From an uncultured Pseudobdellovibrionaceae bacterium (GTDB lineage: Bacteria; Bdellovibrionota; Bdellovibrionia; Bdellovibrionales; UBA1609): a stretch of DNA of 64,000 nucleotides. The stretch covers positions 6,723 through 70,722 of the forward strand of contig CAZVOP010000006.1 of assembly GCA_964628445.1 (NCBI GenBank). The letters are read 5' to 3'. A program made the position numbers and the translations under genes. The first letter of the stretch is position 1. The number at the start of each line of letters is the position of its first letter. Under the pieces are notes generated by a model. The model was not told the DNA's origin. It worked only from the letters and a program-made list of their open reading frames with translations, and did not search any database. This document shows, piece by piece, positions 245 to 18,982 of this stretch.

Positions 245-493
245 TCTACTGGAATCCAGGTATGCCCGTTAACCAGTATACCGGGATCCCGGTATATATA
301 ACTGGCGGGCACGAGTAGATGAAGATGACTTTATAACCCAATATCTCGAATTTACCGCGTAAACGAATTGATTCGAGTTGGCGTGAGGGAGAGCGGGAAG
401 CTATCGAACCCGAAAATCAATTAGGCCGCCTAGGACACCTAAGATTGACGGATAAAGTCACGCCGTTTTAGTTTCTGCATCAGGGGGACCGAA

Positions 494-1462
494 ATGGCCC
501 AAAGTAAATGTTGCTTTTGTAAGAGCGAAGCCAAATACGAAAGGGATCGGGTTAACTACGGAATCGATTGTCCCATTTGTGGCATATATGCCATTCAATG
601 GCGCCTCTACGATAATTTAATAGCTAAAGAAAAAGATAGCTCCCTTCTTTGGGCGATTTCAGAAAATATAAAACACAATCCGAAACGTGATCAAAATTAT
701 GACCCAAATCAAAGGCTTCATTGGTATTCAGGAGATACTTCTCCAGAAAGTCCGTTGAGAGTGCGGAGATTTGAAAATCTTCTCTCACTTCCGATCGATC
801 ACTCGCGGAAACCTGACCAAATTCTGCGTTTAATCGGAAAGAAAACAGGAAGTGGACACCCGTTCTCAGAGATCGAGCTAGAGGAAAGCGACTTATTCTC
901 TCTCAAAATCGGCGACGAGCAGGAAGCCAGACGTTGGATTCTAACTTTAAAAGAACAGGCACTGATTATCTATAGCGGTGGTGTGGGCAGCAAAGCCATC
1001 GGTACCTCTATGTCTGTGACCCCGGCAGGCTGGCAAAGGATTGGCCAACTCTCTCAGTCACACATTTCAAATCTTGGTTTCATTGCAATGTTCTTTGGTC
1101 ATCAGGAACGTGACAAACTTCAGGGAGCACTTGAATCGGGCTGTCGTGAGGCTGGTTTTGATGCAACCACAATCGATCGTCACGAATATGTTGGCGGTGT
1201 TGTTGATGAAGTTGTCTCAAAGATCCGACAGTCAGCATTTGTAATCGCCGATCTTACCGGCCATCGCAATGGAGTATATTGGGAATCGGGATATGCTGAG
1301 GCCCTTGATATTCCTGTCATATACACCGTCGATGACCGCGAGGGTGATCAAAGTCACTTTGACGTGCAACATCTGAATCAGATTCGCTGGAAGTCTTACG
1401 AAGAACTAACCGAAAGAGTCAGAAATAGAATTCTTGCAGTCACCCAACGGAGGGAATTGTAG
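494..1462 (+). CDS. Zn-ribbon / winged-helix-like / C-terminal nucleoside 2-deoxyribosyltransferase-like (NDT/TIR-fold) protein
   Basis: 322-aa ORF with AGGGGGA 5 nt upstream of the ATG. The N-terminus has CCFC-x16-CPIC (zinc ribbon). The C-terminal ~110 aa (GFIAMFFG...SAFVIADLTGHRNGVYWESGYAEALDIPVIYTV) fits, from memory, the Rossmann-like strand-ADLT-x4-NVxxExGxA-x4-PVI pattern of NDT-like/TIR-like effector domains. Not verified by search. Confidence 0.55.
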   Translation: MAQSKCCFCKSEAKYERDRVNYGIDCPICGIYAIQWRLYDNLIAKEKDSSLLWAISENIKHNPKRDQNYDPNQRLHWYSGDTSPESPLRVRRFENLLSLPIDHSRKPDQILRLIGKKTGSGHPFSEIELEESDLFSLKIGDEQEARRWILTLKEQALIIYSGGVGSKAIGTSMSVTPAGWQRIGQLSQSHISNLGFIAMFFGHQERDKLQGALESGCREAGFDATTIDRHEYVGGVVDEVVSKIRQSAFVIADLTGHRNGVYWESGYAEALDIPVIYTVDDREGDQSHFDVQHLNQIRWKSYEELTERVRNRILAVTQRREL

Positions 1463-1489: not shown

Positions 1490-1810
1490 CTAGCGTTTAC
1501 CTTTTGATTCCGCGAGTGCCGCCAAACAAATTGCATGAGCCGCGCTCTTTGAGCACTTCAGCATCGGATGCATCTCCAACCATTCGGGAATTGCGTCTGA
1601 CACTCCTGCCATATGGCCTTCGGACCCCGCAACCCATCCATTCTTATAAGGCTGATATGTTATGTCGAATTTCACCGCGACTGACTTTGCCGCTTCAATA
1701 TCCGTGGAGAATCGAGGTATCGGCGCGGACATCGCGAAACTATTTGGATTCGGAAGTTGAAGGCCCATGATTGAGGCAATTGCTTGATCTAGTTCTGCGC
1801 CATGCTGCAT
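1490..1810 (-). CDS. phage ABA-sandwich-domain-like protein
   Basis: 106-aa ORF. AELDQAIASIMG ... FSTDIEAAKSVAVK ... AAHAICLAALAES resembles the conserved blocks of phage ABA-sandwich proteins (ELDxLVAxxVMG / STDIAAAWEV / LAICxAAL). GAGGAG lies upstream of the ATG. Preferred over the overlapping P/S/R-rich + strand ORF 1480-1770. Confidence 0.45.
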   Translation of the reverse strand: MQHGAELDQAIASIMGLQLPNPNSFAMSAPIPRFSTDIEAAKSVAVKFDITYQPYKNGWVAGSEGHMAGVSDAIPEWLEMHPMLKCSKSAAHAICLAALAESKGKR

Positions 1811-2452: not shown

Positions 2453-3598
2453 ATGAGTCGATCAGGAACGTATGTGGATCAACTAACGGGATACAAAGCT
2501 TTTATCCCATCGAACCTGCCGCCACAACCGCCACTCAAACAAGACGACGAACTTACGTACCTTCTCTCGGCAGCAAACCTGGCGTTGGGCAAACTCTCCG
2601 GATTAGCTTCGATCATTTCAGATCCGGACTTATTCGTATATCTGTACGTTCGCAAGGAAGCGCTTTTAAGCTCGCAAATCGAAGGCACCCAGTGTTCGCT
2701 TGAAGATGTTTTGAGCCCCGATGCGGATGCGGAATCGCCAGTTCAAGACATTGAAGAAGTGTCCAATTATGTCAAAGCAATGAATCAAGGTATCGGAAGA
2801 CTGGCGGATTTGCCTGTATGCACCCGCTTAATTAAGGAAATGCATTCGATCTTGATGGCAGGTGTTAGGGGCTCACACAAAACTCCGGGTGAATTTCGAG
2901 AATCGCAGAACTGGATTGGTCGGCCCGGCGCCACACCCTCAACAGCAGAATTTGTTCCGCCACCTCATCACATTGTCGGCAATCTCATGACCGACCTCGA
3001 AAAATTCATTCATACGGAAGATCAAATTGCTCCTTTAATTAAAGCGGCATTCGTACACGCACAATTTGAAACCATTCACCCATTCTTAGACGGCAATGGC
3101 CGACTTGGACGATTGTTGATTACCTATTTGCTCTGCTATTGGAACGTACTCGACCGACCGCTGCTCTACTTAAGCTACTACTTTAAGGCTCACCGTTCTG
3201 AGTACTATGCTCGGCTGATGGACGTGCGTTTGAAGGGTGACTGGGAAAATTGGATAAAATTTTTTCTACGCGCGGTCGCAAGCTCTGCAGACATGGCAAA
3301 TAATGCAGCCGTTGAAATTCATAAGCTTCACAGCGAAGATCGCCGGCGACTCCAAAATAGCAAGCCGACCGCGTATACACTTCAGGCCTTCAACGAATTT
3401 TGTCATTCGCCAATTCTGACAGTTCCACAATTGATCGAGCGGCATAAGTCGACCAAACCTAAAGTACAACGAGCAATTGACCATCTGATTAAGCTAAATA
3501 TTTTAAAGGAAGTGAGCGGGAAGCAAAGAAACCGCCGTTACGCTTATCTTCAATACCTCACCATACTCGTGCGCGACACCACAGAAAAGGCTGGCTGA
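2453..3598 (+). CDS. Fic family protein (AMPylase-type), N-terminal inhibitory helix, C-terminal winged helix
   Basis: Canonical Fic motif HPFLDGNGRLGRLL. The upstream SSQIEG matches the (S/T)xxxE(G/N) auto-inhibition motif. The length (381 aa) and C-terminal DHLIKLNILKEVSGKQRNRRY (wHTH-like) are typical of this class. Confidence 0.9.
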   Translation: MSRSGTYVDQLTGYKAFIPSNLPPQPPLKQDDELTYLLSAANLALGKLSGLASIISDPDLFVYLYVRKEALLSSQIEGTQCSLEDVLSPDADAESPVQDIEEVSNYVKAMNQGIGRLADLPVCTRLIKEMHSILMAGVRGSHKTPGEFRESQNWIGRPGATPSTAEFVPPPHHIVGNLMTDLEKFIHTEDQIAPLIKAAFVHAQFETIHPFLDGNGRLGRLLITYLLCYWNVLDRPLLYLSYYFKAHRSEYYARLMDVRLKGDWENWIKFFLRAVASSADMANNAAVEIHKLHSEDRRRLQNSKPTAYTLQAFNEFCHSPILTVPQLIERHKSTKPKVQRAIDHLIKLNILKEVSGKQRNRRYAYLQYLTILVRDTTEKAG

Positions 3599-3734: not shown

Positions 3735-4655
3735 TTAGGCGCCCGACTGGCTTTGGGCTCTCATCGATTCGAGCTCCACTCGGCCCTTGTCACCAAATGC
3801 CTTTGGATGGGTGTGAGCGTTGTCTATAAAATAACTTTTTAACAACGGTTCAAGTCCGGAAGCCGTACAGATCTCTAAATGTGAGAACTTAAAGAACTCT
3901 TGGTCACCGCGGAACCCCGATTTAGTCACGCGATCTATAAAATAAGACGTGTGACTTACTCTACGTGCTGCGCCCAACTGCTGCCCTTGATCATCATAGT
4001 CCACTACCCAAAGGTTATTGTCAGAAACAATAAGTACCGGGAGGATCGCAATGTACGAATTCTGTTCATCTCGCTTTTGATCTGCCGCTTGTTCAACCAT
4101 TTCGAAAGCCGAGGAAATGGCTTGTGACATTTTTCCGAAAACCTCAGCGTCTGACCCCACCGATCTCCCATTTTTATTTTCGACTTGATCCATTGATTTT
4201 CCAACAAAGTCGGCCGTCGTATATAAACCATCACCGTCTAACATTCGGAATACCCAACCATCGGCCCTCAAATGCCGTGCTCGATCCTCCGCGGTCTGTA
4301 GTGCGACCTGCACTGTGGTTGTCTTACGAGGCAAGTGAGGAACATAGACAAGATCTTGATACGCTTCCGAGTGCCACCGCTTAAGTCGATGAATTACTAA
4401 CGGCGACAAGGCGCTAATATTTTTGCACTCTACCGCTAAATATCCGCGTTTATTACCATGGAACCACTTTGCCCTAAGATCATATTCACGAGTCTTTTTT
4501 GTTACCTCGTCAACGTAAGTCCCACCCTGCTCAACGTGAAAACCCAAACCTGTTAGGCGTTTTTTAATTTGCACCTCGAAGGAGAAATCCGAATCTGTGG
4601 CCAGGTATGAGGCTATGTCCGCTTCGGTGACTTCGGTTGGAGGGTTCTTAGTCAT
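3735..4655 (-). CDS. PD-(D/E)xK nuclease-fold protein, otherwise uncharacterised
   Basis: 306-aa ORF. TREYDLRAKW ... GYLAVECKN gives the D-x(n)-E-x-K arrangement of restriction-endonuclease-like folds. The remaining ~200 aa contain no motif I recognise. Confidence 0.5.
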   Translation of the reverse strand: MTKNPPTEVTEADIASYLATDSDFSFEVQIKKRLTGLGFHVEQGGTYVDEVTKKTREYDLRAKWFHGNKRGYLAVECKNISALSPLVIHRLKRWHSEAYQDLVYVPHLPRKTTTVQVALQTAEDRARHLRADGWVFRMLDGDGLYTTADFVGKSMDQVENKNGRSVGSDAEVFGKMSQAISSAFEMVEQAADQKRDEQNSYIAILPVLIVSDNNLWVVDYDDQGQQLGAARRVSHTSYFIDRVTKSGFRGDQEFFKFSHLEICTASGLEPLLKSYFIDNAHTHPKAFGDKGRVELESMRAQSQSGA

Positions 4656-4775: not shown

Positions 4776-4939
4776 GGTCGATCACCCCTTCTAAGCAGTT
4801 GTTAGTATTCACGTTACAGTAATTTCAATAACTTGCCATGTTTCAAGTTCGGCCACTGTCGGTTCCTGACGGTCAATTCGGGTCGACTCGTTCCAAAACT
4901 GGCATAATCATCATTAAGAAGTGCTTTAAAGGATGTACG

Positions 4940-5284
4940 ATGAACAAGTTGATTGAAGAATTGAGCAATCCCCCTTTTCTTGACCTAAATATTCTTCCAA
5001 TAATTATCGTGTTTTTGGGCGCCATACTTGGTCCCTTTTATCCGGGCGTCTACGCATCGACCATTTACGCCTCAGCAATCGTTGGTGCCGTCGTTTTATG
5101 GGAAAAAAAGCAAAAATCTGATGCATACACAAAGCTGTCGAGACTCCACGCAAAAATAGAACTTGGAGAGAAAATTGATATTGAGAAATATCTGAGCAGT
5201 GTCATTGGAGATCGGGATTTTCGATTAATTGGCAAAGAAAACTATGCGGCAATTGTAAGCTATATTTCTTCGAGGCAGAAGTAG
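4940..5284 (+). CDS. small two-TM membrane protein
   Basis: The ORF track gives 4838-5284. The internal ATG at 4940 has AAAGGA 8 nt upstream. Predicted TM segments are ILPIIIVFLGAILGPF and IYASAIVGAVVLW, followed by a charged tail. No family recognised. Confidence 0.5.
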   Translation: MNKLIEELSNPPFLDLNILPIIIVFLGAILGPFYPGVYASTIYASAIVGAVVLWEKKQKSDAYTKLSRLHAKIELGEKIDIEKYLSSVIGDRDFRLIGKENYAAIVSYISSRQK

Positions 5285-5393: not shown

Positions 5394-6131
5394 ATGGCGA
5401 CAGGTTACTTTGAGCTAGAAAAATACAGAGCTATGCGAAGGCAAGAGCTGACAGACATGCTCAAGCCGTTTGTTCAAGCAACCGACGCATATGGAGTACT
5501 CATCTGTCGGGTGACCTCAATGCTTGGAGAACATGAGCCATGGTCCACGCAGGATAGAGTCATTCGCGATCTGATGGCTGACGCATTTGATTTCCTCTAC
5601 CAGGCACGAGATCACGTATTGTCTGGATATCTGAACACTGCTTATCCGCTCGCAAGGAGAGCTTACGAAACGATATCTCTAATTGGTGTCAGCATTCAGG
5701 ATGCCTTGGTTGCTGAGAAATGGAATAATTTCGCCAAAGTTGGAAATGCCGAGGTGAGGCGACGCTTAGAAAAGCTGCCATATCGAGAAGACGCTAAGAT
5801 TTTGGCCGAACTTTATGATTTTTATTGTCTGGGCACTCATCCCAATCGGGATTTGATTCCCAATAGACGATTAGGAGAAGGTAATAAATTTGTCCTCGGT
5901 GCTATCGGAATGCCGAATCTAGTACTCACTGTTGATTACTGTATGAAGCTTACCGATTTATGGTTTTGGTTTGGCGCCAATATTTCGATGTTTTACAAAG
6001 CTCAAGCCCAAGAAATGTACCCCGATCATATTGAGAGTTATCGAAAGGTTGCGAAGGATCTCGAAGACTGTAAGGTTTGGTTATCTAAGCAATATAAGAA
6101 CGCCTTAAGAGAGCAAGAGGGGCGCGACTAA
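5394..6131 (+). CDS. hypothetical all-alpha protein
   Basis: 245-aa ORF with a GGTGGTG purine-rich stretch upstream. No catalytic motif recognised. There is only a vague, unverified resemblance to helical Abi-type (DUF5677/AbiV-like) proteins. Confidence 0.5.
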   Translation: MATGYFELEKYRAMRRQELTDMLKPFVQATDAYGVLICRVTSMLGEHEPWSTQDRVIRDLMADAFDFLYQARDHVLSGYLNTAYPLARRAYETISLIGVSIQDALVAEKWNNFAKVGNAEVRRRLEKLPYREDAKILAELYDFYCLGTHPNRDLIPNRRLGEGNKFVLGAIGMPNLVLTVDYCMKLTDLWFWFGANISMFYKAQAQEMYPDHIESYRKVAKDLEDCKVWLSKQYKNALREQEGRD

Positions 6132-6357: not shown

Positions 6358-6870
6358 TCAAGCAAAGCCGATCGCCCCGAGGCGAATAGACATTGCCACG
6401 GAGGATACTTCAAACGACATTGCAAGCTGCTGAATTTCGAATTCTTCTAATTGATCCAACACTCCCATTTTGTCTAATTCAAGCTGTATCAATTTTTCCG
6501 GCATAAGAAGTTCTCCTGCAAAAAAATTTGCTTCGATTTCCTTCTTGTATTGAGTCGTTGCGGAATTTTTATCTCGAAAATGAACGATCGGCGTCACATC
6601 AACATTCAATCGTTTTTCTGGATGGAGCATTATATGTCCAAGTTCATGCGCTAACGTAAAGCGCTTGCGACTCTCGGAAAGACGCTTATCTATTAAAATA
6701 GCCTTGGAAGAACCTTTTATGACAGCGGCTCCTGAAATTGCCGCAAGATCTATTTCTACAATCTCAACATTCATTCGCTCTACAATGTCGACAATATTAA
6801 CTGGCACAGTTACTTCATCATCTAACAGTGCGCTTACAATATTTTTTATGTGCTTATACCGTACTGACAT
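6358..6870 (-). CDS. ImmA/IrrE family metallopeptidase
   Basis: RFTLAHELGHIMLH (HExxH) followed by EIEANFFAGELLMP is the signature of ImmA/IrrE (M78-type) peptidases. It overlaps the upstream XRE gene by 17 nt. Confidence 0.85.
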   Translation of the reverse strand: MSVRYKHIKNIVSALLDDEVTVPVNIVDIVERMNVEIVEIDLAAISGAAVIKGSSKAILIDKRLSESRKRFTLAHELGHIMLHPEKRLNVDVTPIVHFRDKNSATTQYKKEIEANFFAGELLMPEKLIQLELDKMGVLDQLEEFEIQQLAMSFEVSSVAMSIRLGAIGFA

Positions 6871-7326: not shown

Positions 7327-7374
7327 CATTTTGCAAAATGCAAACCGCATTTTGCATTTTGCAAAATGCAAAAT
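7327..7374. promoter_or_regulatory. palindromic operator array (ATTTTGC/GCAAAAT heptamers)
   Basis: Perfect 14-bp palindrome CATTTTGCAAAATG (7327-7340) and perfect 26-bp palindrome ATTTTGCATTTTGCAAAATGCAAAAT (7349-7374), giving six full heptamer copies in 48 nt. The array lies between divergent regulator genes. Two TATAAT hexamers sit at 7273-7278 and 7284-7289 just upstream. Confidence 0.6.
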
Positions 7375-7393
7375 TAATGCTACTCTTCCTGAC

Positions 7394-7924
7394 ATGAGAG
7401 AGCAAAAAAGTTTGAAGCCTCAGGATATACTAGTTTTACTCTGGCTACTGCTGCGCCCACAAAAGGAAGAGTCGCTTCGCCATCTAGATATCGCTTATTC
7501 CCTTAAAATTAGCCCTTCGGAGGCGGGTCTTGCTATCAATCGACTTATGAAGTCGCGCTTAATTACGCAAGAAAAGATACCGATCAAAGCGGCAGCCTTG
7601 GAGTTCTTAATTCACGGATTAAAATATGTTTTCCCAGTAGAGCCAGGACCAGTAACTAGGGGGGTACCGACAGCTCACTCTGCTCGCCCCTTATCAAACA
7701 AACTGATTGCGACCAACGACTCCGAAAGCTATGTGTGGCCCGACCCTCAGGGAAAGGCTCGAGGACAAGCCATTATGCCTCTTTATAAGACTGTTCCATA
7801 TGCTGCTAAAAATGATGAAAAACTTCATGAATTTTTAGCATTAATCGATGCCATGAGAGTAGGAAGAGCAAGAGAAGTAAATTTCGCAGTAGAAGAACTG
7901 AAGCGAAGAATAAAAGAGGCTTAA
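7394..7924 (+). CDS. winged-helix DNA-binding protein, AbiEi-like antitoxin candidate
   Basis: N-terminal QDILVLLWLL...LDIAYSLKISPSEAGLAINRLMKSRLI looks like a MarR-type wHTH. The conserved LEFLIHGLKYVFP ... LALIDAMRVG blocks recur in partners of nucleotidyltransferases. The start is uncertain: ATG 7394 has no clear SD, and the alternatives are TTG 7331 or TTG 7412. Confidence 0.5.
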   Translation: MREQKSLKPQDILVLLWLLLRPQKEESLRHLDIAYSLKISPSEAGLAINRLMKSRLITQEKIPIKAAALEFLIHGLKYVFPVEPGPVTRGVPTAHSARPLSNKLIATNDSESYVWPDPQGKARGQAIMPLYKTVPYAAKNDEKLHEFLALIDAMRVGRAREVNFAVEELKRRIKEA

Positions 7925-7925
7925 T

Positions 7926-8615
7926 TTGAAGGACGACAATATTAATATTCTTCGGTTAGCGGTTCATGAATTGGGGCCCCTAGCGAACAACGTGGTCTTT
8001 GTGGGCGGCGCAACCGTTGGACTATATATTACTGACTCTGCTGTACCGAACGTTAGAGCGACAGTTGATGTCGATTGTGTCGTTGAGGTAACAAGCCAAT
8101 CTGGTTACCATGATATCGAAGAGCAACTTCGGGCCCGTGGTTTTTCCCACGATACTCAAGGCCCAATATGTCGTTTTCTCAAGGGCCCACTAATATTAGA
8201 TGTAATGCCAACCTCTGGGTCGATTTTGGGGTTTACAAATCAGTGGTACCCCGAAGGAGTTGCTAACTCAATGAGTGTGGCTCTCTCCCCCGGGCAAGAG
8301 ATCGCTGTTTTCACAAGCCCGTATTTTCTTGCCTCGAAACTCGAAGCTTTTAAAGGGCGGGGCGAAGACGACTTTCGAGCAAGTCATGACCTGGAAGATA
8401 TAATTGCTGTACTAGATGGAAACGAAGGAATTGCCAACCATATTGGTGCCGCCCCTAAAACCGTCCAAGCGTATCTCAAGCAAGAGTTTCAAAAACTCCT
8501 GGGAAACTCCGATTTCTTAGAGGCTATGGAAGGACATATTGCAGACCGACAAAATTCTGGCTCCAGAGTTCGCATAGTGATTTCTAGGATGGCCGAAGTA
8601 TTACGCTTGCCTTGA
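7926..8615 (+). CDS. nucleotidyltransferase, AbiEii/AbiGii-like toxin candidate
   Basis: FVGGATVGLYITDSAVPNVRATVDVDCVV fits the minimal NTase motif GG-x(n)-R-x-T-x-D-x-D. ASKLEAFKGRGEDDFRASHDLEDIIAVL resembles the AbiEii C-terminal block. TTG start with AGAGG 6 nt upstream, 1 nt after the stop of the wHTH gene. Confidence 0.5.
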   Translation: MKDDNINILRLAVHELGPLANNVVFVGGATVGLYITDSAVPNVRATVDVDCVVEVTSQSGYHDIEEQLRARGFSHDTQGPICRFLKGPLILDVMPTSGSILGFTNQWYPEGVANSMSVALSPGQEIAVFTSPYFLASKLEAFKGRGEDDFRASHDLEDIIAVLDGNEGIANHIGAAPKTVQAYLKQEFQKLLGNSDFLEAMEGHIADRQNSGSRVRIVISRMAEVLRLP

Positions 8616-8939: not shown

Positions 8940-10862
8940 CTAAGCAAAAATCTTATTGATCTCCAAAAACATTTTCTCAAAATTGTCCATAGTCAGACCG
9001 GAAAGATCTCCCTTCCTAAGCCCAACTTGATTCAATTTGTTCGCTGGCCGATAATGATTGAATCTTTCCTTCGATATTACCTTATTAATTTGCTTCACAA
9101 TGGTCGGGAGAGAGGGATCTAGCGTGGAAACATCTACCGGGGGAATCTCCCCTTGAAACGAATCATTGAAGATCTTTAGATAATCATCTTTAGAAAACAA
9201 ATCCTCAATATCTGCAACGGCTTTTCCATTATTAGCGAACTCGTCAAAAAACCTAATATTTTTATCTTTAATGATTTTCATTCGAACAAGATCGTCAACC
9301 CTCTGCTTACCAGACTGGTCTGTATACGTGTCCAGAAGGCACGCCACATTTAACTTGGAGCCTCGCAAAAGCGAGATGAATGTCGATACCTTATCAAGTC
9401 CACCTACTGGTACAATTGTAATGTTGTCTTTCAGAAAGGATCTTCCCTCAATCTCAAGCAGATTGGAAATTGCAGTTAAATAAATAAGGTCGGCCGGACC
9501 TTCAACCAGAAGATTATTTTTCGAAATAAATAAATTCTGCGCAATATCATAACCTAACGCAGCCTGGAGAGGGAAAAGCGTGTTGGGATCTTTCTCTTGG
9601 ATCGTTTCAGAGATAATAGTACCAGCCTCCGTCTCAAGGCAGGTCCTAACACTCGCGAGGCGATCAGACTCAACCATGAATGGCGAATGCGTAGTAAAAA
9701 TGATTTGATATTTTCCCGAGAGGTCTCGGAAGAATTGTAACAGGTCTGCCTGGGCAGAAGCATGAAGATTTAACCCCGGCTCATCAAGTAATAATATATA
9801 TCCCGAATTTTTATCCGCCTGAATTTTACTAAACCATACAATAAACGAAAAGAACCAATTGAACCCCTTGCTGCGGCGATCTAACGGTAGGGTAATTTTA
9901 TGACGACGACTTTTGACCCTAATATCAAGGTATTTTTCTCTAGCCCCCTGATCATTAGTTATGTCCTGAATCTTGAATTCAATATCTAGATTTTTATTTG
10001 TTGACCAATATTTAAATATTTCATTGGTAATCTTGTTTGCCGATGCCTCCAATAGAGCCACATACTTTTCATAATCCTTTTCAACAGCATTCAGAATATC
10101 CGCCGGCCTAATTTTGGCTAACTCAAACAAGGCTCTTGAAGTTTTGTCTCTTTCTGACTTTGGTTCCCCCTGCATTTTGTTTATATTTATTTTTCCGGGA
10201 AGCGGGTAATAGTCGTCAAAATACCAAAATTTTGGAATGTTCGGAACGATCCACTTACTTACAATATATGCCTCAAGTGCATTTTCCCAATTTGGATTGC
10301 CGGCCTGAATTATTTGAGCGATCTCTTTCTTTAATCCCGGGAGGCCCTCGTCGCCCTCCATAGCTTCAACCTGCGATATTTCCTTTATATCTACGATTTT
10401 TGAAATCTTTTTTTTCGTCTCTTTTGAAAGCGTATAGTCTTTTAATTTGAACTCGATAAATTTGCCAACATTAGCCGCAATCCCACTTATGGACTGGGTT
10501 TTATTTTTATAATAATGCGTCCGACTGAACTCCCGGGTAATCAGAACTCCCTCACCTACGTCCTGATCAATCAATTTAGTAAGCTTTGGGGCGATCGCAT
10601 AGTGGCAATTAATTATGTCGCAGTCATCTTCAGCATCTTGAAAATCTATGAGTTCGTTCCTGGGATAGTCCGAAACCATATCGAATTTAAAATCGACGTC
10701 ATTGGAATTAAAATAGTTGGTTTTTGCGATTGCGGTAAGGAACGAGGTTTTTCCAGATTCATTCATTCCAACGATAGTTGTTATCGCTGGGTCAATATTT
10801 ATCTGTTGGGGCTTTTGAATGCTTTTGTACTTGGTTACTTTAACCTTTGTCAGGGTCATCAT
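8940..10862 (-). CDS. OLD-family ATP-dependent endonuclease (ABC-type ATPase + TOPRIM), stand-alone
   Basis: N-terminus MMTLTKVKVTKYKSI...IVGMNESGKTSFL (Walker A), LLLDEPGLNLHASAQ (Walker B/D-loop) and FTTHSPFM (H-loop). The C-terminal part has LLVEGPADLIYL and acidic LLDTYTD (TOPRIM). Start moved from 11054 to ATG 10862, which has AGGA ~10 nt upstream and gives the canonical OLD N-terminus. Confidence 0.8.
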   Translation of the reverse strand: MMTLTKVKVTKYKSIQKPQQINIDPAITTIVGMNESGKTSFLTAIAKTNYFNSNDVDFKFDMVSDYPRNELIDFQDAEDDCDIINCHYAIAPKLTKLIDQDVGEGVLITREFSRTHYYKNKTQSISGIAANVGKFIEFKLKDYTLSKETKKKISKIVDIKEISQVEAMEGDEGLPGLKKEIAQIIQAGNPNWENALEAYIVSKWIVPNIPKFWYFDDYYPLPGKININKMQGEPKSERDKTSRALFELAKIRPADILNAVEKDYEKYVALLEASANKITNEIFKYWSTNKNLDIEFKIQDITNDQGAREKYLDIRVKSRRHKITLPLDRRSKGFNWFFSFIVWFSKIQADKNSGYILLLDEPGLNLHASAQADLLQFFRDLSGKYQIIFTTHSPFMVESDRLASVRTCLETEAGTIISETIQEKDPNTLFPLQAALGYDIAQNLFISKNNLLVEGPADLIYLTAISNLLEIEGRSFLKDNITIVPVGGLDKVSTFISLLRGSKLNVACLLDTYTDQSGKQRVDDLVRMKIIKDKNIRFFDEFANNGKAVADIEDLFSKDDYLKIFNDSFQGEIPPVDVSTLDPSLPTIVKQINKVISKERFNHYRPANKLNQVGLRKGDLSGLTMDNFEKMFLEINKIFA

Positions 10863-11217
10863 AGATAAAATCCTGTTTATAGTCTTATTGTTGTTTGATG
10901 TGTTATTGTTGCCTAGGTGGCGTGAATTTCCAATCCCATATGTGTAAGCGCGGCTGAGGTCGGGCGCGGCGTGGGCCACCTGAAGTTCAGAAAAATCGCG
11001 ATCCACCTGGCGCCAAAGGACCTTTGAACCAAGACGGTGCGGGCTGTCGAGCATACAACAGCAGCTACTGCCAATACGCGTACACTTCCTTGGTCCAGAT
11101 GTAATCTCAGGATGAAACAGAACGACTCTAGACTTTAGGTCTCTTAGCCGTGGAAATAATTTTTATGGATCGATTTGCAGCGTCTAGTCCAAACACAATT
11201 TTTTTCGGAGGGGATAA

Positions 11218-12015: not shown

Positions 12016-12648
12016 ATGCAACTTCGGTTAGAAAATCGATCTCTAAGCTTGGTACGCGCATCAGCTATATTCTGCGCATTGAGCCTCACTGCCTGTGCTT
12101 CCATGGGAGCGTACAATGCACGTACATATGCGCAAATCAGACATAAGCGCACCTACGAGCCCGTAAATGCCAAGGAGTTCAAAGTCGAGGACTCAAATTT
12201 GATCGCTGAGTACACACCGGACATTTTGGACGCCGGCACAAGCTTTCAATTCACCAACAAAACCAACAAGGTCATTAAGATCATTTGGGATGAAACAGCC
12301 TACCTTGCTCCAAGCGGTCAGTCCGAAAGGATCTTTCATGCTGGCGTTAAACTAATAGATCGTGGTCAATCTCAGCCACCCACAGTCATTCCACCTCGGG
12401 GCCATCTCTTGGATGACTTAATTCCTATTGCGAATGTTGAGCCTGGATCCGGCCAGTTTGCAGCTTGGAGATACAACACCATGTGTGGAACGCAAAGCCT
12501 ACCGACAAGAGAGCTTCAAGATGCCGAATGCATTGGAAAAATATTCGGATATTTTCTGACCTACGAGATTGATGGGAAGAAAAAGAATATGACAGCTCAA
12601 TTTAGATTTGTTTCGAAGGAGCCTCTCCCAAAAGAAAGCGCAAAGTAG
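12016..12648 (+). CDS. lipoprotein, unknown function
   Basis: Signal peptide with lipobox LSLTAC. Starts 10 nt after the XRE gene stop. No family recognised. Confidence 0.55.
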   Translation: MQLRLENRSLSLVRASAIFCALSLTACASMGAYNARTYAQIRHKRTYEPVNAKEFKVEDSNLIAEYTPDILDAGTSFQFTNKTNKVIKIIWDETAYLAPSGQSERIFHAGVKLIDRGQSQPPTVIPPRGHLLDDLIPIANVEPGSGQFAAWRYNTMCGTQSLPTRELQDAECIGKIFGYFLTYEIDGKKKNMTAQFRFVSKEPLPKESAK

Positions 12649-12680
12649 CAAGCTCGACAGATCTGCCCGCAGTCTTCAAA

Positions 12681-13142
12681 TTAAGTTGCGGGTGATTCGG
12701 AGTTATCTTTCGATGATTGTTTTTCTAAATAGCGCAGGTGTGATTGATTGATTACTTGTAGCCTTTTTCTTTCTTCCAAAAGCTCTTCAATTGACCATTC
12801 TTCATATCGGAGCGGAGCTGGCTCCTCCATTACGTTGCCGGCTTTACCAATGGCCCGATCCAAGAGCCTCTCGAATGCACAAGCATTACCCGTTTCTAAA
12901 ATATGCAAAATAATCTTTATTAGGCATAGTTCAATCGCCGCCAAATCTTTAAGTTGGGACTTGGCACGTAGCTCTTCTTCAGTAAGAAAAAAATTCTGAC
13001 TGATATACCGTGAGAGCATTTCCTTACTCAACTCACGGACCACTCGCTCCTCACTGGTGTACGAAGCTCCGCCCTTAGGCCTTCCACCTCGCCTGCCGAT
13101 CTGATTGCCAGCTCTAAAACTCGTTCGATTTTTTTTGCCCAT
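12681..13142 (-). CDS. hypothetical protein with N-terminal GNQxGxxGGRPKG motif (DUF5681 / small-terminase-like?)
   Basis: Start set at MGKKNRTSFRAGNQIGRRGGRPKG (ATG 13142). The basic N-terminal motif resembles phage DUF5681/TerS-like DNA-binding N-termini. The assignment is weak. Confidence 0.4.
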   Translation of the reverse strand: MGKKNRTSFRAGNQIGRRGGRPKGGASYTSEERVVRELSKEMLSRYISQNFFLTEEELRAKSQLKDLAAIELCLIKIILHILETGNACAFERLLDRAIGKAGNVMEEPAPLRYEEWSIEELLEERKRLQVINQSHLRYLEKQSSKDNSESPAT

Positions 13143-13242
13143 ATATAGGCATTCTGCCGGTTCGCTGCGCGGCATGTCAATCGCGCGCTCATCTTATATA
13201 TCCCACTGGCTGAATGAAGAAATTCACAGGAGCGAAGTCCAA

Positions 13243-13920
13243 ATGAAACCCTCTCAAAACACAACCACGCAGGCATGGCTGCCCGCTGAAGCCCAAGCGT
13301 TTTATTCATCGAAGACCTTCAAGGAAGCCCCTTCCCAGTTCTCCTGGATACAATCCCAACATATGAAAAGGGTCTGGCAATGCTTCGACCGTTTACCAAA
13401 GAATCGACGGAAGGAAATCACCAAGTTCATCGAATTGCTTCCGATTATTCTCAAACATTCGCAAGAACGAAAGGCTAAGAAACAAATAAATGACTGGCTT
13501 GGTGAAATTACGAGCGCCGCCGCCAAAATAAAGAGAAACATGGACTTGCTTCAAGAATTTGATGGCTTCTCTTTCGAATTGCCTTCGCATGAGGCCGTAC
13601 TCGAAATTGAGCAGGCGACTGAGTTGCGGTCGAGACAGCTAAACGACGATTTAATTGACCTTTATCTAGGTAAAGAGTTCGCACGCGTTGGCTTTTTTAA
13701 AAAAAAGACGTCAAAAGATGCGGTTGAAATCTATCTAATAAAAACTCTTATCAAATTATTTAAAAAATATTTTAATAAACCTAACTATTTGTTGGCCGGA
13801 ATAACCGCGTTGGTGCTTACAAATAACAATAAATATGTAGATGGTGCTGGAAATTTGGAGATTGATCTCATCAGAGATCGTGCGACAAAACTCGCAAAAA
13901 TAGGGAACATTCCTCTCTAA
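13243..13920 (+). CDS. hypothetical protein
   Basis: The ORF track gives 13105-13920, but its first 46 codons overlap the divergent gene. ATG 13243 has AGGAG 11 nt upstream. No motif recognised. Confidence 0.4.
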   Translation: MKPSQNTTTQAWLPAEAQAFYSSKTFKEAPSQFSWIQSQHMKRVWQCFDRLPKNRRKEITKFIELLPIILKHSQERKAKKQINDWLGEITSAAAKIKRNMDLLQEFDGFSFELPSHEAVLEIEQATELRSRQLNDDLIDLYLGKEFARVGFFKKKTSKDAVEIYLIKTLIKLFKKYFNKPNYLLAGITALVLTNNNKYVDGAGNLEIDLIRDRATKLAKIGNIPL

Positions 13921-13996: not shown

Positions 13997-16213
13997 ATGA
14001 AATCGGAAAATAATTCGGATCAGTTACAGGAAGCATTGAGACTACACAAATTAGGATTCGGAATTCACTGGCTAAGGCCTCACTCCAAAATACCTGTGAA
14101 AAGTGGTTGGACAAATGGGGGGCGACTATCGCCAAGTTCTCTCAAAAATGAATTTAGAACAGGAATGAATATCGGGGTTCGCCTAGGCAAAGCTTCGAAA
14201 CTGCGATCCGGAGGGTTCCTTGCAATAATCGATTGCGATGTAAAATCCTCGGCGCCCAAGCACCTTCAGGAGATGACCGCTAAGCTGAACGAACTATTTC
14301 CAGACTATAAGAAAGCGCCCTGCGTGAAATCTGGCCGAGGCAACGGATCGGCCCACTACTATTTGCAAACATCTGAGCCAACGGCACCATACAGAGCTTC
14401 TCAAAGTTCTGAGAAAGTCCCAGTTCACATGCCCGGAATTTCTCCATCAGCAAATGACAAGGTTTCGCTCAGCAAAAAGCAAATTGAAAAAGGTCTGCGC
14501 CTAAGAGCTGCGTGGGAAATTTCGGTTATGGGAGAAGGCCAACAGGTCGTATTGCCCCCCTCCATTCATCCTGATACCGGAATTACTTATCAATGGGTTC
14601 GCCCCCTGAAAGATGACGCTGAAATTCCAACACTCGGCCTCAAAGGCTCTTCGAAAAAAATTGAGAAAGCCACGATCGACGACTTCGAATTTGAAACTAT
14701 CGACCTGAAGAAATCAACTCTCCCACTAGAACTGATCGACGGCATCATCGACGGCGATGGCGTTGAAGATCGATCCGCGTTTCTCTTCAAAGTCGCCATT
14801 GCCATGTTTCGGGAGGGATGGGGTGATAAACAAATTTTGTCAGTTTTGACTGACAAAAATCTCTATATTGGAAAAACCGCTTTTGATCACTGCAAAACTC
14901 AATCGCGCAAAAAAGCCGCACAGTGGATAAGCGACTACACTCTATCCAAAGTGAAAATCGAACACTCGGCAGCTAATGCATTTGACGACCTGGCCGTAGT
15001 CGATGGGAAAGATAGCGATTGGAAACGATCTCTTGATCGCAACAGGTATGAGCGTCCTCACCCGAGTTTCAAAAATATCAAACTGATTTTAGGAAAAACT
15101 GTTAATGAACCTCTTCTCGCTAGAAACGAATTTTCTATGGAGGACATCTGGCTTACCGATACTCCCTGGAACACCAAAGCCGGCATGCCTATTACCGATT
15201 GCGACTCCATTCAAATAAAAGATTGGCTTGCTCATAAGTGGAGGATAGAGCCAAACAAGGATAAGATCGAAGAAGTTCTTCAACAATTTGCAATGGAGAA
15301 CTCATTTCACCCAGTACGGAAATACCTAAAAGCTCTAGAGTGGGACAAAACCAAAAGAATAAATTCTTGGCTAAAAACATATCTCAAAGCAAATGGTCCT
15401 GAACGTTACTTGCAAGCTGTCGGTCAAAAACTTCTATGTGCGATGGTGAAAAGAATCTTCGTGCCCGGATGTAAGTTTGATCAGGTTGTAATTTTAGAGG
15501 GGCTCCAAGGAGTCGGCAAAAGCACCACGGTAAGAATTTTGGCTGACCCTTGGTTTTCTGATTCTCATTTAAATATTGGCGACAAAGATGCCGTGATGAA
15601 TATGCAGGGCATTTGGGTTTACGAACTGGGGGAGCTTTCTGCAATGAGACGAGCCGAAACCAACACCTTAAAAGAGTTCATTACTCGCTCAACGGATCGC
15701 ATCCGACCGCCCTATGGCAAAAGGACAATATCGTTCCCAAGACAATCTGTTTTTATTGGAACGACGAACTCTAAAGAGTATTTGAAAGACCCCTCGGGAA
15801 ATCGACGCTTTTGGCCAGTTGAGGTCGGAAGGATTGACCTGAAGGCACTGCAGAAGGATCGCGATCAATTGTTGGCCGAAGCCGTGGTTTATTCAAAAAT
15901 GGAATCTCTTTGGATTGAAGATGAGTCGATTCAAGAGCTTGAACGTCATGAACAATATTTACGAGTAGAGCACGATGAGCTGAAAGATCTCATACAAGAA
16001 TTTTTGGAAGATTCGAACAATCTCTTTCCCAAACAATTTAAAATTTCAGATCTTCTCGAACGCGTGCCATTCACTTCTATGCGACACGATATTGGATTAG
16101 AAAGACGAATCCATGCATCTCTTAGAGCCCTAGGTTATGACAACCGGGAAAAGTGGGATAAGGCCTTGTGCCGTAACGTCCGACGGTGGCGAAAGCTGAA
16201 ACCTTTAAGGTAG
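13997..16213 (+). CDS. bifunctional primase-polymerase (Prim-Pol) / VirE-type P-loop replication protein
   Basis: The N-terminal part has LGFGIHWLRPHSKIPVKSGW and AIIDCDVKS (Prim-Pol domain with DxD). The C-terminal part has VVILEGLQGVGKST (Walker A) ... FITRSTDRIRPPYGKRTISFPRQSVFIGTTN ... GNRRFWPV, typical of the VirE/D5-like family. Confidence 0.85.
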   Translation: MKSENNSDQLQEALRLHKLGFGIHWLRPHSKIPVKSGWTNGGRLSPSSLKNEFRTGMNIGVRLGKASKLRSGGFLAIIDCDVKSSAPKHLQEMTAKLNELFPDYKKAPCVKSGRGNGSAHYYLQTSEPTAPYRASQSSEKVPVHMPGISPSANDKVSLSKKQIEKGLRLRAAWEISVMGEGQQVVLPPSIHPDTGITYQWVRPLKDDAEIPTLGLKGSSKKIEKATIDDFEFETIDLKKSTLPLELIDGIIDGDGVEDRSAFLFKVAIAMFREGWGDKQILSVLTDKNLYIGKTAFDHCKTQSRKKAAQWISDYTLSKVKIEHSAANAFDDLAVVDGKDSDWKRSLDRNRYERPHPSFKNIKLILGKTVNEPLLARNEFSMEDIWLTDTPWNTKAGMPITDCDSIQIKDWLAHKWRIEPNKDKIEEVLQQFAMENSFHPVRKYLKALEWDKTKRINSWLKTYLKANGPERYLQAVGQKLLCAMVKRIFVPGCKFDQVVILEGLQGVGKSTTVRILADPWFSDSHLNIGDKDAVMNMQGIWVYELGELSAMRRAETNTLKEFITRSTDRIRPPYGKRTISFPRQSVFIGTTNSKEYLKDPSGNRRFWPVEVGRIDLKALQKDRDQLLAEAVVYSKMESLWIEDESIQELERHEQYLRVEHDELKDLIQEFLEDSNNLFPKQFKISDLLERVPFTSMRHDIGLERRIHASLRALGYDNREKWDKALCRNVRRWRKLKPLR

Positions 16214-16650: not shown

Positions 16651-17862
16651 ATGTCCAAAATTGATAGAGCAGTGCCCAAACATCCACAGATTTATCGCGT
16701 TCATGATGTCGATAGTCTGGGAAAGATGAGCCCCACAAGCACGTATCGAGTTCGAAAGCGCGTAAAGGTTAACGGCAAGTGGAGTACAAAGGTGACAACC
16801 TTTAGCAGCTTCGAAGACGCCAAACATTTTGCGCGGCAAAAGTTCGACATCAACGTCATGGGTGCAATCCAAATGCGCTTTAGTGAAGTCCTCAGCAAGT
16901 TTTTGCACCATAAAGAATTTGAAGAGCTGCGCGCTCCGGGTACGATTCACGGTTATCGATCAAGAGCTAAGCATTTTAAATTCTTCGATGACCTTTCCAT
17001 GCGCGATATCACACCTCAAGTGATCGACGGATGGGCGAATCTCATGCTTGATCCGCAGTACAAGGCACTTCAACAAAGCTCCAGAGCGGACTACGACCAT
17101 GAACTGACTTTGCTTTCCGCGATCCTGAGATATCATCGCGAGTATTGGGATGAAACTTACGTCGTCCCAATTATGAGACGACACCGAAAGCGGCTTTGCC
17201 CTCATCGAAAATGTAAGGACGAGATTCGCTACCTCTCCGGTGAGCAAGAACTTCTTTTTCTTGAAGCGCTGAAGCCTTGGCCAGTTGTCCACGATATCGC
17301 CTTATTCCAGCTCCATACCGGGGCTCGCATCGGTGAAGCCGCCGCGATGGATTTTGGCGCGGTCGAATTTGTGAAACATCAGGTTCATATTCGACAACAT
17401 CTTCACTGGGACCGAGTTAAGAAGGGGCAAATATCGATCTTAAAGGGCACCAAGGCCGGACCGGATCGAACCGTGCCTCTAACGTCGGAATGTCTTGATA
17501 TGCTTCGCCATCGCTACCAGACACGCTCTGGATCGGTTGTATTCGCCGACCCCAAACGCGTTACTGGGTGGATGCACTACAGGAGTATTCAAGCCATCTA
17601 TGATCGAGCTTTTGAGAGGCTTGGCTTTTCTCACCGTGGAACCCACACCCTTAGACACACTTTCGCCGTTCGCTTTCTCGAACAAACGAAGGACGTCTAT
17701 GCACTTCAGCGGGCGCTTGGACATACGGATCTGGAAATGACGATGAGATATGCGAAGTACTCCAACGATTCCGTGCGAAAAGCGTTTCAAATTTTTCGCG
17801 GTGGAAGAGAAAACGCCAAAGGTGACGTTCCAAATTTGTTACATGGAACAAGCACCCAATGA
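16651..17862 (+). CDS. int: tyrosine recombinase / phage-type integrase
   Basis: The C-terminal catalytic blocks are TGARIGEA, HTLRHTFAVRFL and LGHTDLEMTMRYAKY (R..HxxR..H..Y). It ends 35 nt from the tRNA-Ser 3' end. Confidence 0.9.
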   Translation: MSKIDRAVPKHPQIYRVHDVDSLGKMSPTSTYRVRKRVKVNGKWSTKVTTFSSFEDAKHFARQKFDINVMGAIQMRFSEVLSKFLHHKEFEELRAPGTIHGYRSRAKHFKFFDDLSMRDITPQVIDGWANLMLDPQYKALQQSSRADYDHELTLLSAILRYHREYWDETYVVPIMRRHRKRLCPHRKCKDEIRYLSGEQELLFLEALKPWPVVHDIALFQLHTGARIGEAAAMDFGAVEFVKHQVHIRQHLHWDRVKKGQISILKGTKAGPDRTVPLTSECLDMLRHRYQTRSGSVVFADPKRVTGWMHYRSIQAIYDRAFERLGFSHRGTHTLRHTFAVRFLEQTKDVYALQRALGHTDLEMTMRYAKYSNDSVRKAFQIFRGGRENAKGDVPNLLHGTSTQ

Positions 17863-17896: not shown

Positions 17897-17914
17897 TGGC
17901 GGAGAGGGGGGGAT
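17897..17914. repeat. attR: 18-bp repeat within the tRNA-Ser 3' end
   Basis: Identical to 4758-4775. Confidence 0.75.
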
Positions 17915-17989
17915 TTGAACCCCCGGTACAGGTTTACCCTGTACGACAGTTTAGCAAACTGCTGGTTTAAGCCACTCACCCACCTCTCC
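17897..17989 (-). tRNA. tRNA-Ser(GCU): tRNA-Ser (anticodon GCU)
   Basis: The reverse complement folds as acceptor GGAGAGG/CCTCTCC, anticodon stem-loop GCAGT-TTGCTAA-ACTGT, long variable arm, T-arm GGGGG-TTCAAAT-CCCCC, with encoded CCA. Confidence 0.9.
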
Positions 17990-18124
17990 AGCGGGATAAA
18001 CTTGACCGTGAAAAACTGAAGCTGCCATAGGCCCCCCCTAGAATCAAGTGCCCGGAACCCCTAAAGATCCTTGCCTTATGGGCAACTAATGTCTAAAAAC
18101 GTGTTTCCTAATTCAAGGAAATGC

Positions 18125-18201
18125 GCGCTCGTAGCTCAGCTGGATAGAGTACTTGACTACGAATCAAGTGGTCGGAGGTTCAAATCCTTCCGGGCGCGCC
18201 A
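18125..18201 (+). tRNA. tRNA-Arg(ACG): tRNA-Arg (anticodon ACG)
   Basis: GCGCTCG acceptor, TAGCTCAGCTGGATAGAGT D-arm, anticodon loop CTACGAA, T-arm GGAGGTTCAAATCCTTC, CGGGCGC-G-CCA. Confidence 0.9.
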
Positions 18202-18253
18202 ATTTTTTCTTTCCCTTGACCTAATGCCAACCCTGCGACATTTTTGGCGAATT

Positions 18254-18982
18254 ATGAAAAAGCTTTTCCTGATTCTGTTGCTCCCTGGATCCCTCGCCCT
18301 CGCCGCCGTCATCGGCACCAGCCCCGAAAAAATCGAGCGGGAATATGATGGCGCCCTCGTCGAAAAGCTCCATGTCGAAAACACCTCGGGCCGCATTAAC
18401 ATCACCGCCGGCGACCGCCCGCGCATCGTGATCACCGCTGCAAAGATTAAATTTCCCGAGAAGTGCGCTCTTATCACCGAAAAGTCCGAGTTCAACGAAG
18501 TCCTCGTGCGTGTCGAGCGTCCGGTCGCCAGCGAGTGCCAAATCGACCTTGATATTCAAGTGCCCAAAGAGATCTCGCTGAACTTATGGTCGGGCTCGGG
18601 GCACATCAATGTGGCCGGCATCCGCGGCAATCTGGTTTTCAATGTCGGTAGCGGAACGGTAAATGCCAACGGCGAATTCGCCAAGATTGACGGCAAATCC
18701 GGCAGCGGCGACGTCACCATCAACGGCATCGCGGGCGGCGGGCAGGTCAGCGTCGGCAGCGGTAATGTGAATTTAAAATTCTTAGAGGACCTTCAAGGTG
18801 CGATCGACGTGAAAACCGGCAGCGGTAACGCCAACCTCGCCTTCCCGAAGGGTTCCAAAATCAAAGCCGAACTGGGCGCGGGTAGCGGCGATGTTTCGAA
18901 TGACATCGACACCTCCGACTCCGCCGATTTCGGTGTTTCGGTAAAAACGGGTTCGGGCGATCTTAAGATCAAAGCCTACTGA
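18254..18982 (+). CDS. secreted beta-strand repeat protein (DUF4097-like)
   Basis: Start moved to MKKLFLILLLPGSLALA (signal peptide) because ORF 18071 overlaps tRNA-Arg. The repeated GSGxVN/TI units (SGSGHINV, GSGTVNA, GSGDVTI, GSGNVNL, GSGNANL, GSGDVSN, GSGDLKI) are typical of DUF4097-type repeats. Confidence 0.5.
   Translation: MKKLFLILLLPGSLALAAVIGTSPEKIEREYDGALVEKLHVENTSGRINITAGDRPRIVITAAKIKFPEKCALITEKSEFNEVLVRVERPVASECQIDLDIQVPKEISLNLWSGSGHINVAGIRGNLVFNVGSGTVNANGEFAKIDGKSGSGDVTINGIAGGGQVSVGSGNVNLKFLEDLQGAIDVKTGSGNANLAFPKGSKIKAELGAGSGDVSNDIDTSDSADFGVSVKTGSGDLKIKAY

Follow-up and report, generated by a model that had tools for sequence, protein, structure and literature searches.

What does a solitary gene do that joins a zinc ribbon, a winged helix-turn-helix (wHTH) and a Rossmann-like domain in the genome of an uncultured Pseudobdellovibrionaceae bacterium? 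The gene, which encodes a protein of 322 residues, lies near the left end of the 64,000-nucleotide stretch of contig CAZVOP010000006.1 that we analyzed (the window; Table 1). The original prediction, made from the letters alone, had described it as a candidate single-gene, nucleotide-targeting effector with a nucleoside 2-deoxyribosyltransferase (NDT)/TIR fold. On balance, we consider it probable that the protein works on its own against phages, as sensor and effector in a single polypeptide, through abortive infection. Its candidacy as a defense effector gains computational support from its best match in the PADLOC library, from the defense islands, prophages and plasmids in which members occur, and from a natural exchange of its putative enzymatic head for a TIR domain.

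The open reading frame (ORF) is far beyond chance, since the protein matches its own family profile end to end at E = 7e-103 in an exhaustive HMMER search; it is also identical to database entry P0001. Every motif quoted in the original prediction is present and in order, and the quoted residues are those that the family conserves. Two spacings in the C-terminal motif string were one residue off, without consequence: the protein reads VIADLT-GHR-NGVYWE rather than x4-NxVYWE, and AEAL-DI-PVI rather than AL-x-PVI. A scan of positions 1-2500 for promoters and terminators gave none above shuffled expectation.

The family to which the protein belongs is very large. The exhaustive search covered 1.84 billion cluster representatives (clusters at 50% identity) and returned 4,650 clusters at E ≤ 1e-30, a number that rises to 14,017 when the cut-off is relaxed to E ≤ 1e-10 and to 26,674 at E ≤ 1e-3; all of the best 150 matches are full-length (292-383 aa). 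In a pattern scan limited to a single genome for each species, at least 581 relatives were found. A word-indexed search that returned 36 relatives had pointed to a rare family; this was a sensitivity artifact, refuted by the genome scan and the exhaustive search. Relatives occur in Bdellovibrio, Planctomycetota, Omnitrophota, Verrucomicrobiota, Chloroflexota, Bacillota, Acidobacteriota, Proteobacteria and further groups, in a distribution that is patchy across many phyla and with low identity between tree neighbors. Counts of conserved residues and domain matches below refer to 103 members from many phyla, and neighborhoods to 87 loci. At these loci the protein is almost always 300-345 aa long with the enzyme domain C-terminal, and an explicit CxxC-x(8-30)-CxxC is found in 61 of them.

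Profile searches and the comparison of AlphaFold2 (AF2) models by Foldseek both place the C-terminal domain with NDT and DNPH1. The Pfam model that holds DNPH1/Rcl and the NDTs (PF05014, clan Nribosyltransf) is matched by 98 members at E ≤ 0.01 (best 2e-8); it is also the precomputed annotation of several homologues in the database. When a profile of the C-terminal domain alone was searched against the PDB, the only solved relatives were Rcl/DNPH1 (E = 0.002) and the Trypanosoma brucei NDT (E = 0.0075), and no TIR, CD38 or retron effector chain appeared at E ≤ 10. The AF2 model alternates strands and helices in blocks with a predicted local distance difference test score (pLDDT) of 65-95, in a flavodoxin-like three-layer α/β fold around a five-stranded parallel sheet. 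Foldseek matched the domain to DNPH1, Rcl, NDT and BcmB with probability 1.0 and target-normalized template-modeling scores (TM-scores) of 0.55-0.70, the highest (0.70) being to Rcl/DNPH1, with NDT and TIR domains ranking behind. The whole model gave weak E-values to mostly generic flavodoxin-like folds, and a viral structure library returned only isolated NDT, CMP-hydrolase or TIR domains.

The TIR half of the predicted "NDT/TIR fold" may hold at the level of the fold and gives way at the level of the family. SARM1, RUN1, TcpB, RPS4 and TIR-APAZ were matched with a probability of about 1.0, a target-normalized TM-score of about 0.5 and E of about 2e-3, no better than the NDT/DNPH1 and flavodoxin matches; in these models, the TIR similarity fits a shared TIR-DrHyd-SLOG clade rather than TIR membership. 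Among the models of the TIR clan (STIR), TIR_2 matched one member (E = 0.0068), DUF4062 matched one (E = 0.0033), and ThsB_TIR and SEFIR matched none. Membership in the canonical TIR, ThsB or DUF4062 families was ruled out on these grounds; by sequence, the domain belongs with the NDT/DNPH1 ("DrHyd") enzymes.

Glu264, which had been predicted to occupy the catalytic position through its WESG motif, indeed aligns with the catalytic nucleophile of Rcl (GVGYELG) and with the motif Glu of the T. brucei NDT (GTAFEVG). It is kept in 102 members, in company with F196 and A198 (100 each), D253 (102), T255 (97), R258 (81, with Lys in a further 13), G260 (97), Y262 (101), G266 (103), A268 (101), H288 (98), D290 (102) and W299 (96). 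Because D253, Y262, E264, G266 and the H288-F-D290 motif are each retained in at least 98 members from many phyla, we take the domain to be an active enzyme and not a ligand-binding relic; judged by this conservation, it is an enzyme under strong purifying selection rather than a degenerate binding domain. In Rcl and NDT an acidic residue (D69 and D72, respectively) binds the sugar 3′-OH. Position 69 of Rcl falls opposite I/V240 in an ungapped HMMER alignment, which is not a structural superposition; D238 (85 members) is two residues off, and the invariant D253 lies on the strand that follows D238. With DNPH1, Rcl and the NDTs the family has in common the motif (A)D/E-x-T...G-x-x-x-E-x-G-x-A...P-(V/I), with the Glu aligned. 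Those proteins, its closest relatives among solved structures and in sequence, are small single-domain housekeeping enzymes, whereas the family here bears an extension of 190 residues, an F-x-A-M-x-F motif on β1, and an H-F-D and a Trp near the C-terminus. It also has no Asp at what we take to be the D92 position of the Lactobacillus leichmannii NDT, where it conserves Arg/Lys258 instead.

The original prediction could not match the N-terminal two-thirds of the protein to anything known, and this no longer stands: the region holds a zinc ribbon and a winged helix of the MarR/PadR type. The CxxC-x16-CxxC spacing of the ribbon was given correctly. None of the four Cys residues (C6, C9, C26 and C29) varies in the closer homologues, and they are kept in 97, 80, 79 and 79 members, respectively. 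The ribbon is modeled as four short β strands (pLDDT 80-87); members match the Pfam zinc-ribbon models Lar_restr_allev (nine members) and Zn_ribbon_3 (four) as well as a TFIIB ribbon, and the family profile matches zinc-ribbon chains in the PDB. In about one-fifth of the wider family the ribbon is replaced by a variant, "C-x-I-W...RAGGDY", in which C9 has become W, C26 has become S and C29 has become A. A linker follows that is the most gapped and most divergent part of the alignment. The winged helix suggested in the original prediction emerged from a separate AF2 model of the N-terminal part, where it has pLDDT 84-97 and the topology H-S-H-H-S-W-S (wing) followed by a helix (helices 103-118, 131-136, 142-154 and 177-188; strands 127-129, 158-160 and 172-175); the Foldseek search with the whole model had missed it. 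Its top Foldseek matches are all MarR/PadR regulators, with target-normalized TM-scores up to 0.62, and the family profile finds MepR/MarR sequences in the PDB at E = 0.016-0.04. The sole strongly conserved feature of the wHTH is (L/I/V)-T-x-x-G179-W at the wing and the following helix (G179 in 99 members). Mean column identity is 14% in the N-terminal module and 38% in the C-terminal domain, a difference that fits a target-recognition module in an arms race.

A search with a profile of the N-terminal module returned almost only NDT-type proteins, plus one protein of 393 aa (P0095) whose C-terminal part matches Pfam SEFIR and TIR_2. Its closest N-terminal relative is P0262 (336 aa), which is 66% identical over the whole module and ends in an NDT-like domain (FVAMWF...VADFS...GGVYFEAGFA...HFDTRQYNHIVW). 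The BLAST alignment of the two continues from the sensor through β1 into the GGVxYE segment of both heads, and they come from different genomes of the same metagenome. As far as a comparison of sequences can, this exchange establishes the N-terminal part as a module in its own right, and it suggests a sensor with an interchangeable NADase-type head, either NDT-like or canonical TIR.

The gene does stand alone, as had been stated. All-against-all clustering of the four neighbors on either side gave no conserved partner gene, and the largest cluster occurs at 8 of the 87 loci. The surroundings are often those of defense or mobile genes. One relative adjoins OLD and AbiGi; another adjoins a resolvase, a type I restriction-modification (R-M) system and Mrr; a third sits in a prophage, directly upstream of the terminase genes. 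Relatives on Bacillus mycoides megaplasmids lie among integrase, recombinase and HNH genes, and one on a Hydrogenimonas plasmid has genes for an ATPase, a hypothetical protein and an HNH protein after it. In a Chloroflexota subclade (L024, L029, L046 and similar loci, ∼7.5-15 kb) the gene is found inside type I R-M operons with a HEPN/MNT pair, with an HsdS-like-nucleotidyltransferase fusion and a HEPN protein (NTase_sub_bind) upstream and HsdR downstream. We also scanned the two neighbors on either side (290 proteins from the 87 loci, in two sets). The defense and mobile-element matches include type I S subunits (seven neighbor proteins), HsdR, type III and type IIG enzymes, GT4-conflict, AAA_15/21, ThsB_TIR (two), IetA, PDC-S65/S05/M02B, integrases and RhuM. 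Two of the defense genes that accompany the gene in the window recur beside relatives in unrelated genomes: homologues of PDC-M21A/B (42% and 35% identity) adjoin them at L023 (2102-3306) and L042 (1992-3977), as does an OLD homologue (28% identity over 644 aa). This is a repeated, independent co-occurrence. A "197 + 232 aa pair + OLD" that the window seemed to share with another locus (L001) was rejected, as the pairs are not homologous and the contexts are independent. By raw counts, taken with no background rate, the gene is a solitary, horizontally moving one with a real defense association.

From these data we infer a role in defense and a nucleotide substrate, and the following sequence of events can be proposed. 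The fast-evolving N-terminal module would recognize a sign of infection, which could be a phage protein or a nucleic acid, and probably also controls the oligomeric state. The NDT/DNPH1-like domain would be an N-glycosidase with Glu264 as its catalytic carboxylate, and its activation would probably proceed via formation of a dimer or oligomer, or via a rearrangement, that completes the active site in the manner of NDTs and TIRs. Activation by oligomerization is suggested by NDT and TIR enzymology and by analogy with Swarozyc (see below). Once activated, the head would cleave the base-ribose bond of an essential nucleotide, most likely NAD+ and alternatively adenine or deoxy-nucleotides, and depletion of the nucleotide pool would stop phage replication.

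The proposal has precedents. The best library match of the protein is the PADLOC model PDLC00733 ("Effector", "TIR"; E = 8.7e-12); as 100 members match it (best 4e-18), their enzymatic head falls into a class already cataloged among defense effectors. Only its last quarter is involved (positions 274-366 of 388); the N-terminal ∼270 positions are unrelated and presumably form that effector's own sensor. A CBASS/Pycsar effector was considered and rejected because only this C-terminal quarter is matched and there is no cyclase: neither a cyclase nor another partner is present among the window neighbors, and no such neighbor is conserved at the 87 loci. DrHyd/NDT-type domains have been predicted to be NADase effectors equivalent to TIR (PMC9503650). 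NDT and TIR have both been noted as swappable C-terminal toxins in Abi-type proteins, and the AbiJ-type proteins, with variable N-terminal recognition and a swappable toxin (HEPN, restriction endonuclease, TIR or NDT), follow the same predicted principle (PMC3710099). The N-terminal module here is a zinc ribbon plus wHTH, not the mainly helical AbiJ-NTD1, and the AbiJ-NTD Pfam models are matched by none of the 103 members.

By analogy, the family may be functionally most like the retron type II effectors and the single-protein sensor-NADases Swarozyc and SpbK, but it is without their defining features. The retron effectors (Retron-Eco1/Ec86, Sen2 RcaT and Ec73; ∼310-320 aa) are of similar size, combine an NDT-like domain and its catalytic Glu with a wHTH, and have an anti-phage role in which activity depends on NDT-domain dimers. 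The Ec86 effector needs Glu106 and dimerization and is reported to deplete adenine derivatives/NAD+ (10.1101/2023.08.16.553469; PMC13276650). In these proteins the order is reversed, with the NDT domain N-terminal and the wHTH C-terminal, there is no zinc ribbon, and control is exerted by an adjacent reverse transcriptase (RT) and multicopy single-stranded DNA. No retron effector chain is among the top 50 Foldseek matches listed, no RT domain was found among the window neighbor ORFs, no retron noncoding RNA was found in the window at the Rfam gathering threshold, and the 25 Pfam families listed as commonest in each set of the two-neighbor scan include no RT family. A retron-like system was rejected on the lack of an RT and noncoding RNA, the reversed domain order and the lack of sequence similarity. 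Swarozyc is a DUF4062 TIR-like NADase whose HTH/winged auxiliary domain turns the NADase on by binding the phage portal (10.64898/2026.05.01.722283), and SpbK is a single-protein TIR defense NADase (PMC11984713). Both unite in one polypeptide a TIR-class Rossmannoid hydrolase and a winged-helix-type recognition module, become active when they assemble on a phage structural protein, and cause abortive infection via NAD+ depletion. The family here differs from both in its enzyme family, its opposite domain order and its zinc ribbon.

Several observations weigh against our reading. The window protein itself matches PF05014 at E = 2.3e-5 and 24.9 bits, below the gathering score of 28.8; Foldseek E-values are weak for the C-terminal domain (about 1e-3) and for the wHTH (0.05-0.3, as expected for a small domain); and the inter-domain arrangement in the AF2 model is unreliable (predicted TM-score 0.48). 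The TIR-for-NDT exchange rests on one TIR-bearing protein on one contig. The neighborhood signal is only moderate, from counts without a control, and many neighbors are housekeeping genes, among them tRNA synthetases (four), aconitase (two), malate synthase (two) and ribosomal protein L19 (two). We found no published experiment on any family member. Finally, the nearest solved relatives, DNPH1/Rcl, hydrolyze deoxynucleoside monophosphates (dNMPs) and not NAD+.

A variant that we regard as doubtful is that the protein is the first example of an unnamed, very widespread one-gene immune system whose rapidly diversifying sensor reads a phage component directly and whose DNPH1-like head attacks a target other than NAD+, such as dNMPs, hydroxymethyl-pyrimidine nucleotides or DNA bases. 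If true, this would be a nucleotide-depletion or base-excision immunity distinct from that of the TIR/SIR2 NADases, dNTPases and deaminases.

An unlikely alternative is a DNA-directed glycosylase, in which the zinc ribbon and wHTH bind (phage) DNA and the head removes normal or modified bases, so that abasic sites block phage replication; this would be direct restriction rather than metabolite depletion. Both N-terminal domains are classic nucleic-acid-binding modules, the nearest solved relatives cut a deoxyribose-base bond, and the preferred substrate of DNPH1, hydroxymethyl-dUMP, is a modified nucleotide of phage type. Anantharaman et al. proposed in 2013 that NDT domains in Abi-type fusions act on DNA as ricin does on RNA (PMC3710099), and the members inside type I R-M operons would suit such a role. 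The module, however, is not basic (median net charge over the members -2 for the wHTH and -1 for the ribbon), so DNA binding is not a given, and in our alignments no polar or basic residue is conserved in the recognition helix. To the best of our knowledge, no NDT-family enzyme acts on polymeric DNA. The natural swap partner is moreover a TIR/SEFIR head, and the characterized bacterial roles of these domains center on NAD+.

Slightly less probable still is an addiction or regulatory module of mobile elements, whose wHTH and ribbon would autoregulate or bind a site on the element while the head, as a growth-arresting toxin, stabilizes the island, plasmid or prophage. In most cases wHTHs of the MarR/PadR type are transcription factors, and members do recur on plasmids, prophages and integrative islands and beside toxin-antitoxin (TA) genes (HigBA, MNT/HEPN and DUF433). 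Against this, no antitoxin-like partner is conserved at the 87 loci, many chromosomal members lie beside housekeeping genes with no obvious mobile element, and the N-terminal module diverges much faster than typical autoregulators.

We consider it very unlikely that the protein is a signal generator like ThsB of Thoeris, making from NAD+ or another nucleotide a second messenger to activate an effector whose gene lies elsewhere. Signaling systems are almost always encoded as operons, and the 87 loci show no conserved neighboring gene for a receptor or effector (SLOG, SIR2, Macro, SAVED or similar); the exchange of its head for a TIR domain, the computational prediction that TIR/DrHyd enzymes are able to make signals of the cyclic ADP-ribose type (PMC9503650), and the ThsB_TIR genes that adjoin two members speak for it. 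Least probable of all is a housekeeping or stress protein for nucleotide salvage or regulation with no role in conflict (a nucleotide-sensing transcription factor or a regulated Rcl-like dNMP hydrolase), as plasmid homologues named "nucleoside 2-deoxyribosyltransferase" by NCBI and a sizable share of housekeeping neighbors might suggest, given the patchy multi-phylum distribution with low identity between tree neighbors, the presence on islands, plasmids and prophages, the lack of a conserved metabolic operon, the fast-evolving sensor, the TIR swap and a best library match that is a defense effector model.

The principle of the sensor-effector, a variable sensor joined to a Rossmannoid N-glycosidase, is familiar; the architecture has no name, and members of the family are very common. 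We found no published description of a zinc ribbon-wHTH-NDT protein, and an earlier computational mention is possible. PADLOC v2 has no model for the whole protein and returns only the partial effector match, and defense annotation pipelines therefore probably miss the family. If the family defends, it adds a common single-gene system to the catalog and shows that immunity uses NDT/DNPH1-type N-glycosidases outside retrons as well. This would hardly astonish a specialist, and the question of the substrate could yield something new. The TIR-for-NDT swap on one sensor scaffold offers a compact test of whether both Rossmannoid heads are biochemically equivalent, and at ∼320 aa, with clear catalytic and metal-binding residues, the protein is easy and cheap to test.

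Table 1. Features of the gene, its protein and its surroundings (window coordinates unless a locus is named)
Feature	Position (nt)	Strand	Residues	Evidence or remark
Zinc ribbon-wHTH-NDT-like protein, complete coding sequence	494..1462	+	1-322	ATG start, 322 aa + stop; from ORF list
Shine-Dalgarno-like AGGGGGA	482..488	+		5 nt 5′ of ATG; read off sequence
Zinc ribbon	494..628	+	1-45	conserved Cys, AF2, Pfam, PDB matches
CxxC knuckle C6-C9 (CCFC)	509-520	+	6-9
CxxC knuckle C26-C29 (CPIC)	569-580	+	26-29
Variable, low-confidence linker/helical region	629..790	+	46-99	pLDDT 35-58 in both models
wHTH	791..1060	+	100-189	AF2, Foldseek, profile
Wing-like segment SVTPAGWQRIGQL			174-186
NDT/DNPH1-like (DrHyd-type) Rossmannoid putative N-glycosidase domain	1061..1459	+	190-322	Pfam, PADLOC, PDB profile, Foldseek
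FIAMFF			196-201
Catalytic core VIADLT-GHRN-GVYWESGYAEAL-DI-PVIY	1241..1324	+	250-277	Glu264 codon GAA 1283-1285
VIADLT			250-255
GVYWESGYAEAL			260-271
PVIY			274-277
SoFic	2453-3598	+		PADLOC 3e-119; Pfam Fic
CapP-like M78 peptidase	6358-6870	-		PADLOC capP 7.7e-29; Pfam Peptidase_M78 (M78/IrrE-type)
PDC-M21A/B	7331-8615	+		PADLOC PDC-M21A 1.1e-45, PDC-M21B 5.4e-63
OLD-family ATPase-TOPRIM	8940-11054	-		PADLOC Old 9.5e-29; Pfam AAA_15 + OLD-like TOPRIM
Prim-Pol/VapE gene	13997-16213			near right end of island
Tyrosine integrase	16651-17862	+		PF00589 E = 1.4e-21; adjoins tRNA-Ser
tRNA-Ser	17897-17989	-		ARAGORN + Rfam
P0095 (SEFIR/TIR head)	L089 784-1965			in small TA/R-M patch
P0262 (NDT-like head)	L090 8001-9011			in small TA/R-M patch

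The surroundings of the gene in the window had been called a decayed mobile region, and they proved otherwise. The gene is cargo of an intact, low-GC integrative defense island, with a tyrosine integrase at tRNA-Ser, a Prim-Pol/VapE gene and several intact defense systems. The GC fraction is 0.415-0.477 over the first ∼17.9 kb and 0.483-0.551 beyond (mostly 0.50-0.55). The integrase and tRNA-Ser mark the right end of the island, which continues past the left edge of the window. Near the M78 peptidase there is no visible cyclase or effector of a CBASS system, and Rfam at the gathering threshold finds only three tRNAs in the window.

Between the known defense genes lie island ORFs with no Pfam match (3735-4655 on the minus strand, 4838-5284 and 5394-6131 on the plus strand, and 12016-13920), with lengths of 306, 148, 245, 210, 164 and 271 aa. 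A PADLOC scan of those of 306, 148, 245 and 210 aa gave no match. The ORFs without a Pfam match could all be further defense candidates. An ORF of 106 aa (1490-1810, minus strand) converges on the 3′ end of the gene and has a weak Phage_ABA_S match below threshold (E = 0.0068); it is not conserved beside homologues of the gene.

The same type of enzyme head occurs in another setting. In Streptococcus prophage 315.2 (SpyM3_0974; L006 3896-4675) and in related Javan prophages, a 259-aa protein carries an NDT-like domain near its N-terminus, followed by an unrelated C-terminal part, and sits in the lysogeny module between a cI-like repressor and cro. The architecture differs while the enzyme head is the same, and the position is one where prophages typically encode defense genes. 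Just past the island in the window are a DUF488 protein (22318-23013, plus strand) and a DUF4097 "toastrack" protein (18071-18982, plus strand); the ORF of the latter overlaps a tRNA-Arg (18125-18201), and its start is therefore probably miscalled.

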